Counted from the stretch's first letter, positions 56,897-63,827 are shown. The stretch: DNA of 64,000 nt from Escherichia coli (GCF_003334355.1 NZ_QOWP01000002.1), one strand, 5' to 3'. Notes: generated by a model from the sequence alone, not told the origin. Made by a program: numbers and translations.

Positions 56897-56929
56897 GCCC
56901 GATGGCATCACCATCGGGCCTCTTTTTAT
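56897..56929. terminator. Bidirectional intrinsic terminator between convergent narP and ccmH
   Basis: gcccgatgg-catca-ccatcgggc flanked by A-run and T-run; overlaps the ccmH stop codon. Confidence 0.75.
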
Positions 56930-57978
56930 TTACTCTCCTGCGGCGACAAATGTTGCATCGCCTGCGCGATACTACGTTCAATCACCGCACGGCGAGTATC
57001 GTTGGCAGGTAAGAGTTTCAACATCATCTCCCACGCGGCAACGGCTTCGCCAAATCGCTGCTGCTCAAAGGCATTAAACGCATACATGCTTAACACACGG
57101 ATATTGCTGTGGTCGCTTCTCACCAACTGGCGCAGCAGTTCACCACCGAGGCGGTTGTCGTTGGGATCAGATGAACGTGTCAACGCTTCAGCATAACCCA
57201 GTGCGGCATCGCTGTTTTTCGGATCGAGGCGATACGCAGTAGCGTATGCATCGGTGGCGATACTAGCGTTACCCAGCGCCATGCCAACGCGGCCCAACAT
57301 AATCCAGCCTTCTATATCTCCCGGATTTTTTTGCAGTTGAGTACGCATCCCCAGCGCAAGACGCGACATCTCTTCTTCGTTGAGCGGATCGGTTTTCGGA
57401 TCCAGCGCCCTGTCCAGCAACGCCGGAGCCTGTGCCGTGGCCTGCTGCCAGATTTTCACCTGCTGATAATTGCCAGTCTGGTAGTAGCTGACGCCAGCCA
57501 CAATTAACGCCACCACAATACCCGGCAGATAAACAATATATCCGGCACGCTTACCTTCCTGCACGCTTTGTTCAGGAAACGCTTCCGGCACTACGCGTAC
57601 CCGACGCCGCGAGCGGGCGTATATGACCCAACCGCCAATGCCAATAGCCACTACCGGAAGCACCCACAGCAGCACGGTCAGCGGCGTTAACGGCGGATCG
57701 TAAGTGACGAAGTTGCCGTAACGCGCCACCATATAATCGACAATCTCTTTTTTACTTTTACCTTCCTGCATCAGTTCATACACTTTCTGACGCAGGTCGG
57801 TGGCAATCATCGAGTTGGAATCGGCAATGCTGTTGTTCTGGCATTTCGGGCAGCGCAGTTCTTCAGTGAGCTGACGGAACTGTTGTTCCTGTGCTTCATC
57901 TTTAAACTGCAACACGTCGATGGTCGCCAGTGCTGAGCCGGAGATCATCAGCATCAGCACGCCCAATAAAAACCTCAT
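56926..57978 (-). CDS. ccmH: Cytochrome c maturation protein CcmH (fused CcmH/CcmI, TPR repeats)
   Basis: 350-aa ORF with LRCPKCQNNS motif. Confidence 0.9.
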   Translation of the reverse strand: MRFLLGVLMLMISGSALATIDVLQFKDEAQEQQFRQLTEELRCPKCQNNSIADSNSMIATDLRQKVYELMQEGKSKKEIVDYMVARYGNFVTYDPPLTPLTVLLWVLPVVAIGIGGWVIYARSRRRVRVVPEAFPEQSVQEGKRAGYIVYLPGIVVALIVAGVSYYQTGNYQQVKIWQQATAQAPALLDRALDPKTDPLNEEEMSRLALGMRTQLQKNPGDIEGWIMLGRVGMALGNASIATDAYATAYRLDPKNSDAALGYAEALTRSSDPNDNRLGGELLRQLVRSDHSNIRVLSMYAFNAFEQQRFGEAVAAWEMMLKLLPANDTRRAVIERSIAQAMQHLSPQESK

Positions 57979-58532
57979 TGTGCGGCCTCCTTACTGTATT
58001 TCTCCCACAGCGGCTTGATCTCTTCTTCCCAGACGCGAGGATTGAGATCGCCCGCATGGCGATAGCGAATGATACCGTCGCCGTCAATAAGGAAGGTTTC
58101 TGGCGCGCCATAGACACCGAGATCCAGCCCTAACATGCCGTCGCCATCAAACAGGCTTAGCGCGTAAGGATTGCCCAGCTCTTTCAGCCAGCTGATTGCC
58201 TTCTGGCGATCGTCTTTATAGTTCATGCCGACCACGCGAATGCCCTGCGCTGAAAGCTGATTCAGATATTGATGTTCCGCACGGCAGGTCGGACACCAGG
58301 TCGCCCAGACGTTAAGCAGTACTGGTTTGCCCTGAGTCAGCACATCCGCCTGATAAAACTGCCCCGGATTGTCCAGTGATTCGAGACGAAACTTCGGCAC
58401 AGGCTTGCCAATGAGCGCCGATTCCAGATTGGTCGGATCATCCCCTTCGGCATTACGCGCCAGCTGCCACAGCAGCGCCGCGGCAATCGCCAGGAAGATA
58501 ATCAACGGAATTAACAATACTTTGCGCTTCAT
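57975..58532 (-). CDS. ccmG: Thiol:disulfide interchange protein CcmG (DsbE)
   Basis: 185-aa ORF with thioredoxin-like WCPTC motif. Confidence 0.92.
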   Translation of the reverse strand: MKRKVLLIPLIIFLAIAAALLWQLARNAEGDDPTNLESALIGKPVPKFRLESLDNPGQFYQADVLTQGKPVLLNVWATWCPTCRAEHQYLNQLSAQGIRVVGMNYKDDRQKAISWLKELGNPYALSLFDGDGMLGLDLGVYGAPETFLIDGDGIIRYRHAGDLNPRVWEEEIKPLWEKYSKEAAQ

Positions 58533-60472
58533 ACGGCCTCCGGCGCAGTTTTTTGCGGACTCACGCGCTTACGATAGCGAGGATCAAACAGACACAGCAG
58601 TCCGCCCAACGCCATCATCAGCCCGCCCGCCCAAATCCAGCGAACAAATGGTTTGTAGTAAAGACGCACGGCCCACGCGCCGTTTTCCAGCTCTTCACCG
58701 AGCGCGGCGTACAGGTCACGCGTGATGCCGCCGTCAATTGCCGCTTCGGTCATCATCGACCCGGCAGTGTTGTAATAACGTTTTTCCGCATACAGCACCG
58801 TTTCCGGCTTGCCATCGCGCGTTACGCCGATAGTCGCCACACCGCCACGCCAGTTCGGGCCAGTCACCTCTTTGACATCACGGAAGGTGAAGCGATATTC
58901 ATGAATATCGACGCTATCGCCGGACTTCATGCGCACATCACGCTCAACGCTATAGTTCTGGCTAAAGGCAATGCCAACAATTGTCACTGCCAGCCCAAGG
59001 TGAGCCGCCACCATCCCCCAATAACTGAAGGTGGTTTTCGTGCCGCGTGAAATACGTAGCGCAGCTTCCGCAATTGCCAGCACCGCAATCCAGCAGGCCA
59101 TTGCCATGCCGAGCACCGTCATCGCCACAACTTTGCTTTCGAACAGCCACGGCAACAGCAGCGACAGCACCAGCGTAGAGATGAAGGCGATAATCAATAA
59201 ATTGCGGATCTTACGCGGGCGATCCCGCCCCCAGCGCACCAGAGGACCGACACCAAGCAGTAGCGCAAACGGCACCATCAGCCAGGTAAACATGGTGTTG
59301 AAGAACGGTTCGCCAATCGAAATACTGCCCAGTCCCAGTTGCTTATGCACCAACGGCAGCAGCGTCCCCAGCAACACCACCAGCATCGCAGCGACCAGCA
59401 AAACATTGTTCGCTAACAGCAAAGATTCCCGCGACCACAGCGCATTGTTTACGCGTGAGCGAACTTTGTGTCCACGCGCGGCAAACAGCAGCAGCGAACC
59501 GCCAATCACCAGCACCATAAAGGCGAGGATAAACATACCGCGCGCCGGATCAGACGCAAACGCGTGTACCGATACCAGCACGCCGGAACGCACGAGGAAG
59601 GTCCCCAGCAGACACAACGAGAAGGCACTGATTGCCAGCAGTAATGTCCACGCTTTGAAACTGGCGCGTTGTTCAGTGACCGCCAGTGAGTGCATCAGCG
59701 CAGTCCCCACCAGCCACGGCATAAACGAGGCGTTTTCTACCGGATCCCAGAACCACCAGCCGCCCCAGCCGAGTTCGTAATAGGCCCATGCGGAACCGAG
59801 CACAATGCCGAGCGTCAGGAAAATCCACGCCGCCAGCGTCCACGGGCGAGTAAAACGCGCATAAGTGCTGTCCAGACGCCCGCTCAGCAAAGAAGCAATG
59901 GCAAAAGCAAACGCCACCGAGAACCCCACGTACCCCATATAGAGCAGAGGCGGATGGAAGATCAGCCCCGGATCCTGTAACAGCGGGTTAAGATCGCGCC
60001 CTTCAATCGGGAAGTTCGGCAACGTGCGTGAGAACGGGTTAGAGGTAAAGAGAATGAACAGCAAAAAGCCGACGCTGACCATCCCCATTATCGCCAGTAC
60101 GCGGGCCACAATATCCAGCGGAATACGCTGACTAAAAATCGCTACCGCAAAGGTCCAGCCGCTCATCAGCAGCACCCACAGCAGGAGCGAGCCTTCATGC
60201 GCGCCCCAGGTAGCCGCCACGCGATACCACACCGGAAGCTGGGTATTGGAGTTGCTGGCAACATAGGTGACGGTGAAGTCGTTGACCACGAAGGCATTGA
60301 CCAGTACCAGAAATGCGCCAGCCACAGACATAAACAGCAGCCAGGCAAACAAGCGGGAAGACGCCATCATGCGCGCATCTCCGCGCGCTACGCCCCATAG
60401 CGGATACACGGACAGCAGCAGCGCAATTCCTAGCGCCAGACACAGCAGCCCGTTACCAATTTCCGGCATCAT
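58529..60472 (-). CDS. ccmF: Cytochrome c-type biogenesis haem lyase subunit CcmF
   Basis: 647-aa polytopic membrane ORF. Confidence 0.92.
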
Positions 60473-62592: not shown

Positions 62593-63212
62593 GCGGCCCT
62601 CGTTTGCGTCAGTGAAATGCGGCGAATTTTACTTTCAGCAACGTTGAGCGGCTGGTGGGTAGTCAGAATCACAATCCCCCCCTGCTCCGTATGCTGCGCC
62701 ATACGCTGGGTCAGACGATCGACGCCGTTAACGTCAATCGCGGTAAAAGGCTCGTCGAGGATCCATAACGTGGCACGGGTCAGCCACAGACGCGCTAAAG
62801 CGACGCGGCGTTGTTGCCCGGCCGAGAGCTGATTTACAGGAATATCTTCGAATCCGGCAAGCCCGGCCTGCGCCAGGGCTTCCAGACATTGTGCGGTATC
62901 GCCATCGCGATGATAAAAGTGCAGATTTTCTAACGCCGTCAGCCGGGTTTTGATCCCCGGCTGATGGCCTATCCATAACAGGTTTTGATGGTAGCTGTCG
63001 CGTACCTGATGCAAGGGCTGCCCTTGCCAGAGAACCTCGCCTGCGTCAGGGCGAGACACCCCCGTCAGCAAACGGAGAAGCGTTGTCTTCCCCGCGCCGT
63101 TGCTACCGGTGATTTGTACCCACTCTCCTGCGTTCAGCGTAAATGACAAGCCACTAAATAAGGTTCGTTCATCCCGCTCACAAAGTAACTCTCTGGCTTC
63201 AAGCATACCCAC
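62589..63212 (-). CDS. ccmA: Haem exporter ABC ATP-binding protein CcmA
   Basis: 207-aa ORF with Walker [10 protein letters not shown]. Confidence 0.92.
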
Positions 63213-63224
63213 GCAATAACCCTG

Positions 63225-63827
63225 TTAAAAACCTGGCTCGACTTCACGCATATCGGGCAGCTTGTGCGCTATCCCTTTATGGCAATCAATACAGGTTTGC
63301 CCATCTTTCACCGCCTGGTCATGCATCTTCGCGGCAACCGATTTCTGGGCGGTTGTATCCATATACTCGAAGTTGTGACAGTTACGGCACTCCTGCGAGT
63401 TATTGTCCTTCATGCGCCGCCACTCATTCTGTGCCATCGTCAGACGATGAGCTTCAAATTTCTGCGGCGTGTCAATAACGCCAAAAATTTTACCATACAG
63501 CTCTTTACTTGCTTTGAGCTTGCGTATCATCTTCGGCACAAACTCGTGCGGAACGTGACAATCCGGACAGGTCGCACGGACGCCGCTACGGTTGTTGTAG
63601 TGCACGGAATCCATGTATTCCTGATACACCGTGTTGCGCATTTCGTGGCAGCTAATGCAGAACTCTTCGGTATTGGCTTTTTCCATCCCGGTGTTAAAGC
63701 CACCCCAGAAGACGATGCCGCCAACAAAACCGATCAACAGCAGCGTCCCCAGCGCCAGACGGCTGGGGGTACGCCACCATTTCCACAGGCGCTTAATCAG
63801 ACCAGGCTTACGGTCAGAATTTCCCAT
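63225..63827 (-). CDS. napC: Tetrahaem cytochrome c NapC (NapC/NirT family)
   Basis: 200-aa ORF with four CxxCH motifs (CISCH, CPDCH, CRNCH, CIDCH). Confidence 0.92.
   Translation of the reverse strand: MGNSDRKPGLIKRLWKWWRTPSRLALGTLLLIGFVGGIVFWGGFNTGMEKANTEEFCISCHEMRNTVYQEYMDSVHYNNRSGVRATCPDCHVPHEFVPKMIRKLKASKELYGKIFGVIDTPQKFEAHRLTMAQNEWRRMKDNNSQECRNCHNFEYMDTTAQKSVAAKMHDQAVKDGQTCIDCHKGIAHKLPDMREVEPGF

Follow-up and report, generated by a model that had tools for sequence, protein, structure and literature searches.

Four-nucleotide ATGA overlaps at six of the seven junctions of the Escherichia coli ccm operon and the probable coupling of translation across them

In a window of 64,000 nucleotides from Escherichia coli (GCF_003334355.1 NZ_QOWP01000002.1; all positions refer to this whole stretch), most of the ccm genes run into one another by 4 nt. 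This raises the question of whether the overlaps are real, whether they couple the translation of neighbouring genes, and what the single departing junction, between ccmB and ccmC, may mean. The ccm genes form the System I cytochrome c maturation operon, ccmABCDEFGH. All eight lie contiguously on the minus strand, ordered from A to H, and follow directly on the nap genes for periplasmic nitrate reductase, the last of which before ccmA is napC (63827-63225, minus strand, ATG to TAA; from the ORF list and a coordinate script). The interval of 56926-63827 that the original prediction gave for the ccm genes also takes in napC, whereas ccm proper occupies 56926-63212. Beyond ccmH lies a bidirectional intrinsic terminator hairpin (56896..56920), common to ccmH and the convergent narP; its 11-bp stem contains seven G-C pairs and, on either strand, leads into a T-run. 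Annotated E. coli chromosomes match the DNA with 100% identity, and 5426 of 5426 complete genomes contain the locus. The locus agrees with napFDAGHBC-ccmABCDEFGH (b2194-b2201) of E. coli K-12 in gene order, gene lengths, all distances at the junctions, the convergent narP, and the terminator, and nothing of substance differs. The window belongs to a non-K-12 strain whose yejO is, by its annotation, an intact autotransporter; its DNA is 99.3% identical to the K-12 derivative DH5alpha and 100% identical to other E. coli strains, and CcmF and CcmH show a few amino-acid variants among strains (different WP accessions).

Protein identities were based on NCBIfam profile scores relative to each model's cutoff, together with signature motifs. 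Seven of the eight Ccm proteins, as well as NapC, score above the cutoff of an equivalog or subfamily model, and all eight ccm genes are intact with signature motifs. NapC, a tetraheme quinol dehydrogenase, has four CxxCH motifs (NF007906, 462.9 bits against a cutoff of 349), and RefSeq places napC at the same position. The first ccm gene, ccmA (63212-62589, GTG to TGA, 207 aa), encodes an ABC ATPase with the Walker A motif GSNGAGKT (NF010061, 330.9 bits, cutoff 195), and ccmB (62592-61930) encodes the ABC permease or heme translocase (TIGR01190, 317 bits, cutoff 156, residues 6-216 aligned). The heme-handling WWD protein CcmC (61888-61151, ATG start, 245 aa) carries the motif WGTWWVWD (TIGR01191, 281.9 bits, cutoff 186) and is followed by the 69-aa CcmD (61154-60945; TIGR03141, 67.3 bits, cutoff 26). 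The periplasmic heme chaperone CcmE (60948-60469; NF009635, 321.8 bits, cutoff 264, residues 1-158 aligned) has the covalent heme-binding His130 and also Tyr134, within HDENY at residues 130-134. CcmF (60472-58529), a heme lyase subunit, contains the WWD motif WGGWWFWD (TIGR00353, 1016 bits, cutoff 569), and CcmG (DsbE; 58532-57975) is a thiol:disulfide oxidoreductase with a CPTC motif (NF011941, 420.5 bits, cutoff 359, residues 1-185 aligned). CcmH (57978-56926, 350 aa) is of the fused CcmH-CcmI type. It is the one protein without an NCBIfam match above cutoff, its residues 5-120 being NrfF-like at 127 bits, below the cutoff of that paralog model; it has a CPKC motif, and the name CcmH stands at the same coordinates in the RefSeq annotation of a 100%-identical locus.

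The ATGA overlap is present at six of the seven junctions within ccm, the upstream frame reading NNA TGA and the downstream frame ATG ANN. On the minus strand these lie at 62589..62592 (ccmA/ccmB; GCC GCA TGA in the one frame, ATG ATG TTC in the other), 61151..61154 (ccmC/ccmD), 60945..60948 (ccmD/ccmE), 60469..60472 (ccmE/ccmF, reading ATGATG), 58529..58532 (ccmF/ccmG), and 57975..57978 (ccmG/ccmH). The distances are thus -4 for A/B and for each of C/D, D/E, E/F, F/G, and G/H, +41 for B/C, and +12 for napC/ccmA, where the spacer CAGGGTTATTGC (63213..63224) is 12 nt long with ccmA at its GTG. The original prediction was right in its gene identities, gene order, and all eight junction distances, with the six overlaps where it placed them and its ccmB-ccmC gap of about 40 nt now measured at 41 nt (61889..61929). 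Its proposed comparison with the annotated operon gives the same coordinates in RefSeq for the 100%-identical locus. PGAP annotation has the same distances there and in three other E. coli strains, and the K-12 values (-4, +41, five times -4, and +12) are tabulated by Huber et al. 2023 (PMC10666635, Suppl. Tables S2 and S3). Junctions of -4 are clustered in ccm above chance: they make up 6/7 in the operon and 0/33 of the other same-strand CDS pairs of the window (Fisher p = 1.8e-6). Genome-wide, distances from -8 to +6 nt account for 24% of E. coli pairs (PMC10666635), and even against this generous rate the probability of at least six in seven is ~1e-3.

Overlaps of this kind could be produced by the choice of start codon, if the real starts lay further downstream and left gaps between the genes. 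Starts of equal plausibility do exist at ccmB and ccmF, where the second ATG of ATGATG is the only nearby alternative, and ccmH has TTG, GTG, and ATG in frame among its first 11 codons. However, the second ATG at ccmB or ccmF would keep a 1-nt overlap with the stop codon, and the later starts of ccmH would cost its signal peptide the charged start (MR...). In ccmD, ccmE, ccmF, ccmG, and ccmH no possible start lies between an in-frame stop and the ATG of the ATGA. The NCBIfam alignments of CcmB, CcmE, CcmF, and CcmG begin at residue 1-6, and that of CcmD begins at residue 12; as its next Met is residue 24, part of the conserved region would be lost with a later start. RefSeq and the tabulated K-12 distances agree with these starts, as do 11 other taxa in their annotations. 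Full-length profile matches and conserved N-termini support the starts, and the artefact is very improbable; alternative start codons, named beforehand as the way to refute the overlaps, do not remove any of them convincingly. At ccmC, starting from an upstream TTG at 61912 would leave a gap of 17 nt. This start was rejected because gamma- and betaproteobacterial relatives preserve the N-terminal Met-Trp of MW(K) where the annotated ATG places it, while the spacers upstream are unrelated in sequence and length.

What the overlaps do is a question of how ribosomes reach the downstream genes. Termination-reinitiation coupling, proposed by analogy with other native E. coli pairs, is the best-supported reading, to which we assign a probability of roughly 0.8. 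After terminating at the upstream gene's UGA, a ribosome would reinitiate at the overlapping AUG with help from a Shine-Dalgarno motif that lies within the preceding coding sequence. Such Shine-Dalgarno-like motifs precede all six overlapped starts, their duplex energies lying between -5.8 and -12.1 kcal/mol against an operon-wide mean of -2.5. They include GAGGG for ccmB (-6.4 kcal/mol), AGGAGG just before the ccmD/ccmE overlap (-10.3), GGAGG just before ccmF/ccmG (-9.5), and TAAGGAGG just before ccmG/ccmH (-12.1); the motifs of ccmA (-3.3) and ccmC (-3.0) are weak. Coupling by termination-reinitiation was found in four of five and then three of three native E. coli -4 pairs, and a 20-nt spacer nearly abolished it (PMC6728339, PMC10666635). 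The suggestion of translational coupling in the original prediction is in this light a reasonable one. Our search of the searchable literature found no direct test at the ccm junctions.

The ccm genes are probably co-transcribed with the upstream nap genes; napFDAGHBC-ccmABCDEFGH is listed as one transcription unit in PMC10666635 Suppl. Table S3. Between the genes that they join, the overlaps leave no space where a terminator and a promoter could fit, and a consensus scan of the operon for sigma-70 promoters returned four sites, no excess over the 5.2 expected from shuffles. Under coupling, CcmA-B and CcmC-D-E-F-G-H would form two blocks translated from one mRNA, with proteins in linked amounts within each block, and ccmC would need de novo initiation. 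The nearest counterparts are the E. coli pairs hyfHI, astDB, ydbH/ynbE, as well as menDH (Huber et al. 2019, 2023), which like ccm combine an ATGA overlap with an embedded Shine-Dalgarno motif and encode membrane-complex subunits, and which share, as the ccm genes probably do, one polycistronic mRNA. Coupling has been measured for these pairs, whereas for ccm it is suggested by the overlaps. Unlike the single pairs tested, ccm has five -4 junctions in a row from ccmC to ccmH, and any coupling would therefore propagate along a chain.

The overlaps may instead be real but neutral, a by-product of genome compaction and the easy origin of ATGA, with the genes translated independently. Since each overlapped gene has a Shine-Dalgarno-like motif of its own, independent de novo initiation is possible, and one of the five tested -4 pairs, bioBF, does behave in this way (PMC6728339). 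A distance of -4 is also the most common one between same-strand genes genome-wide (PMC10666635). The ribosome-binding sites at the junctions have an unremarkable predicted accessibility (30th-88th percentile among operon positions), with nothing to suggest a masking structure that would make initiation depend on translation of the upstream gene; this accessibility does not separate overlapped from non-overlapped starts and cannot discriminate reinitiation from de novo initiation. Against neutrality stand the majority of tested native -4 pairs, which are coupled, and the 4.5-fold enrichment of short overlaps among E. coli genes for complex subunits (Huber et al. 2023, PMC10666635). In alpha-, beta-, and gammaproteobacteria the junctions moreover hold at -4, -1, or -8 despite diverging flanking protein termini (12 loci; accessible part of PMC10666635 Suppl. 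S4). On balance independent translation seems unlikely.

This conservation was assessed in plasmid and chromid records and in the published table of 1,695 species. Across the 12 loci, 54 of the 68 junctions other than ccmB/ccmC are at -4 and 64 of 68 fall between -8 and +6, counts that may be somewhat inflated if annotation pipelines favour ATGA starts. In the accessible part of that table (PMC10666635 Suppl. S4), the median distances are -4 for CcmA@B, D@E, F@G, G@H, and H@I and -1 for C@D and E@F. The ccm operons of Pseudomonas, Legionella, Serratia, Cupriavidus, Sinorhizobium, and others have mostly -4 junctions, as in E. coli. The arrangement is expected and conserved, as had been said of it. 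Textbooks and databases already cover the operon, the boundaries of its genes, and what ATGA overlaps mean in general, and the exact distances have been published (PMC10666635). The discovery value is accordingly small, and the locus serves as a positive control for gene calls and junction reading from sequence alone; the recurrent ccmB-ccmC boundary is the only point of specialist interest.

The ccmB/ccmC junction is the sole non-overlapping one within ccm, with 41 nt followed by a ccmC start with a weak Shine-Dalgarno match. A spacer of 25-122 nt is found at this position in 10 of the 12 loci, in three proteobacterial classes. In the compared loci, Shine-Dalgarno energies average -2.6 kcal/mol for ccmC versus -7.2 for the other junctions. 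Among the pairs listed with a median distance of up to 21 nt in the accessible part of PMC10666635 Suppl. S4, CcmB@CcmC is absent. The spacer could tentatively be seen as a conserved translational break between CcmA-CcmB and CcmC-D-(E-H), allowing unequal amounts of CcmAB and CcmCD, a reading that we consider doubtful. Such a break would bear on the disputed composition of the heme-release complex, given as Ccm(AB)2CD or as Ccm(ABCD)2 (PMC9616876 against PMC10457321), and on the toxicity of free CcmB in excess (PMC11868835). If the spacer does set the CcmAB:CcmCD synthesis ratio, it would provide independent genetic evidence on the stoichiometry of CcmABCD. No RNA family, including known riboswitches or leaders, was matched in the spacer or elsewhere in positions 56000-64000 (Rfam, E <= 1), and the fold of the ccmB 3' end, spacer, and ccmC 5' end does not exceed shuffles in stability (z = -0.46), which gives no evidence of a special structure. 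An internal promoter between ccmB and ccmC is not supported, the sigma-70 scan, which as a consensus search cannot exclude one, having placed no site in the spacer.

In other Pseudomonadota, the ccmB-ccmC spacer is present in most loci, as in E. coli. Two Burkholderiaceae loci, unlike E. coli, have a ccmB/ccmC overlap of 4 nt, and the spacers of the compared loci share no common sequence or predicted structure; both observations run against a translational break. The genes ccmH and ccmI are mostly separate in these bacteria and are fused in E. coli and Citrobacter. In rhizobia the system is split, with ccmABCDG at one locus.

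The window holds a piece of the E. coli chromosome with sanA, mgl, fru, yej, narP, ccm, and nap in that order. On its minus strand, napC (63827-63225) is followed by ccmA (63212-62589, annotated with a GTG start), ccmB (62592-61930), ccmC (61888-61151), ccmD (61154-60945), ccmE (60948-60469), ccmF (60472-58529), ccmG/dsbE (58532-57975), and ccmH (57978-56926). Several complete E. coli genomes match the 7.1-kb region around ccm at 100% identity, and each of the 5,426 complete genomes searched contains a match to it. Curated NCBIfam cutoffs are exceeded by NapC and by seven of the eight Ccm proteins, the exception being CcmH, which falls below every such cutoff; in a 100% identical locus, RefSeq gives the name CcmH to the protein encoded at these coordinates. 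A Walker A motif is present in CcmA, the WWD motif in both CcmC and CcmF, His130 and Tyr134 in CcmE, a CxxC motif in both CcmG and CcmH, and four CxxCH motifs in NapC. Judged from its sequence, this System I operon for cytochrome c maturation is functional. Elsewhere in the window, yejO (53333-55924, minus strand) is an intact autotransporter gene of 863 aa; in K-12 MG1655 it is presumably an IS5-disrupted pseudogene. Strain PSS-12, with a 100% identical ccm region, carries an IS1 between narP and yejO, a difference that sets it apart from the strain of the window.

Distances computed by script from the coordinates are -4 nt (an overlap) at A/B, C/D, D/E, E/F, F/G, and G/H, +12 nt (a gap) at napC/ccmA, and +41 nt at B/C, and all six overlaps read ATGA. 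The original prediction of 4-nt overlaps at these six junctions and of a 12-nt gap behind napC is confirmed in full, since NCBI annotation of an identical locus has exactly the same coordinates and the annotated coordinates and distances of three more strains, including a K-12 derivative, agree with the window. The gap put at about 40 nt between ccmB and ccmC is present and measures precisely 41 nt; the interval assigned to the ccm genes, 56926-63827, has the junctions right and includes napC. Junctions of -4 make up 6/7 of those in ccm vs 0/33 of same-strand CDS pairs elsewhere in the window (Fisher p = 1.8e-6), a clustering far above chance for this neighbourhood. Genome-wide, the range from -8 to +6 nt takes in 24% of same-strand pairs in E. 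coli (PMC10666635); taking this as the rate, the probability of at least six in seven is ~1e-3. The nap genes (63828-64000 and beyond) can be followed in a 49.5-kb E. coli locus, L004, that spans window positions 27000-64000 and ~12.5 kb more. There (36838-42066) these genes, upstream of ccm, are closely packed as well, with distances of napB/napC +9, napH/napB -4, napG/napH -14, napA/napG +6, napD/napA -4, and napF/napD -11. All eight -4 overlaps of L004 fall within nap-ccm, and seven of its nap-ccm junctions lie beyond or straddle the right end of the window.

The overlaps also stand when other start codons are considered. In five genes, ccmD, E, F, G, and H, an in-frame stop precedes the ATG of ATGA with no other start codon between them. 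NCBIfam alignments begin at residue 1-6 in CcmB, CcmE, CcmF, and CcmG; the CcmD profile matches from residue 12, and the next Met is only at residue 24. Both ccmB and ccmF start in a tandem ATGATG (62587-62592 and 60467-60472, minus strand), in which the second ATG, the nearest alternative, retains a 1-nt stop overlap (TGATG), so that either ATG is compatible with coupling. For ccmC, an upstream TTG at 61912 was rejected as the start because Citrobacter, Salmonella, Serratia, Klebsiella, Legionella, and Vitreoscilla share the Met-Trp (ATG-TGG) at the annotated ATG, and the spacers before it bear no relation to one another. The annotated ccmA GTG at 63212, 12 nt past the napC stop, is followed two codons on by an in-frame ATG at 63206 (MGM...), and either codon may be the one used.

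All six overlapped starts have a Shine-Dalgarno-like motif inside the upstream CDS, and its duplex energy ranges from -5.8 to -12.1 kcal/mol (for example, TAAGGAGG 5' of ccmH and AGGAGG 5' of ccmE). The non-overlapped starts of ccmA (-3.3 kcal/mol) and ccmC (-3.0 kcal/mol) are near the operon-wide mean of -2.5. In native E. coli -4 pairs, termination-reinitiation coupling has been demonstrated by experiment, an embedded Shine-Dalgarno motif usually aids it, and spacers of ~20 nt all but eliminate it (PMC6728339, PMC10666635). The embedded motifs and these coupled pairs support the suggestion of translational coupling in ccm, and we infer, as the most likely mechanism, that downstream ccm translation depends on upstream translation. 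Ribosomes terminating on ccmA would reinitiate on ccmB, and those starting on ccmC would be passed along the chain D, E, F, G, and H. Such reinitiation would tie together the amounts in which the partners in the CcmABCD/E and CcmFGH membrane complexes are made. Short overlaps are 4.5-fold enriched in E. coli genes for subunits of complexes (PMC10666635). A literature search found no direct test of the ccm junctions. Neutral compaction is kept as an improbable explanation of the overlaps because bioBF, one tested E. coli -4 pair, initiates de novo, and because predicted ribosome-binding-site accessibility does not tell coupled reinitiation from independent initiation.

The arrangement had been described as expected and conserved, and it is. 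Loci were compared from Citrobacter, Salmonella, Serratia, Klebsiella, Pseudomonas, Legionella, and Xanthomonas, and from Sinorhizobium, Rhizobium, Cupriavidus, Burkholderia, Sphaerotilus, and Vitreoscilla; they come from annotated plasmid, chromid, and mislabelled chromosome records, several "plasmids" being multi-megabase replicons. Eleven of the loci were tabulated with a script; there, 54/68 junctions other than B/C are at -4 and 64/68 lie between -8 and +6. These distances agree with Suppl. Table S4 of a 1,695-species survey (PMC10666635), in which medians are -4 for CcmA@CcmB, CcmD@CcmE, CcmF@CcmG, CcmG@CcmH, and CcmH@CcmI and -1 for CcmC@CcmD and CcmE@CcmF. The feature is a known operon whose junction pattern is already catalogued, since Suppl. 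Table S2 of the same study lists identical distances for E. coli K-12 (-4, -4, -4, -4, -4, +41, -4, +12). Among individual loci, the conjugative Shewanella sp. LC6 plasmid pSX1_LC6 (L009, 5591-7441) carries a lone ccsA-ccmC-ccmD piece with a 1-nt ccmC/ccmD overlap, the remaining ccm system being absent. A 993-nt gene annotated as DsbE family in Vitreoscilla filiformis pVF1 (L016, 9700-10692) suggests a fused ccmG-ccmH. Xanthomonas sacchari (L012, 7848-8023) has a ccmE-ccmF gap of 174 nt, from which other taxa differ.

The sole non-overlapping junction inside ccm is the ccmB-ccmC spacer (61889-61929, minus strand). Besides the window, a gap of 25-122 nt is present in 10/12 comparison loci (L005, L006, L007, L008, L010, L011, L013, L015, L016, and L019) from three proteobacterial classes; the exceptions, annotated at -4, are the Burkholderiaceae Cupriavidus necator pHG1 and Burkholderia sp. 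YI23 (L014, L018). Across compared loci, the mean Shine-Dalgarno energy is -2.6 kcal/mol for ccmC vs -7.2 kcal/mol for other junctions. CcmB@CcmC is absent from the Suppl. Table S4 rows examined, whose medians run up to 21 nt (PMC10666635). The spacers of the compared loci have no common sequence, and in E. coli the spacer has neither an Rfam match nor a promoter-like site, and its fold is not unusual. By eye, GC-rich inverted repeats seem to lie right behind the ccmB stop in Pseudomonas, Klebsiella, Sinorhizobium, and Serratia. We speculate, quite tentatively, that the break may allow unequal production of CcmAB and CcmCD, a reading made relevant by conflicting cryo-EM stoichiometries, Ccm(AB)2CD vs Ccm(ABCD)2 (PMC9616876 vs PMC10457321), and by the reported harm of excess CcmB (PMC11868835).

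Between ccmH and the convergent narP lies a strong hairpin (56896-56920), a bidirectional terminator shared by the two genes. The ccmH-narP spacer is 34 nt in the window (56892-56925), which is without the extra 176 bp found there in many E. coli strains (comparison locus L002, 7276-7485). This extra stretch contains REP-like palindromes (a BIME-type element), with a copy of the hairpin on each side.
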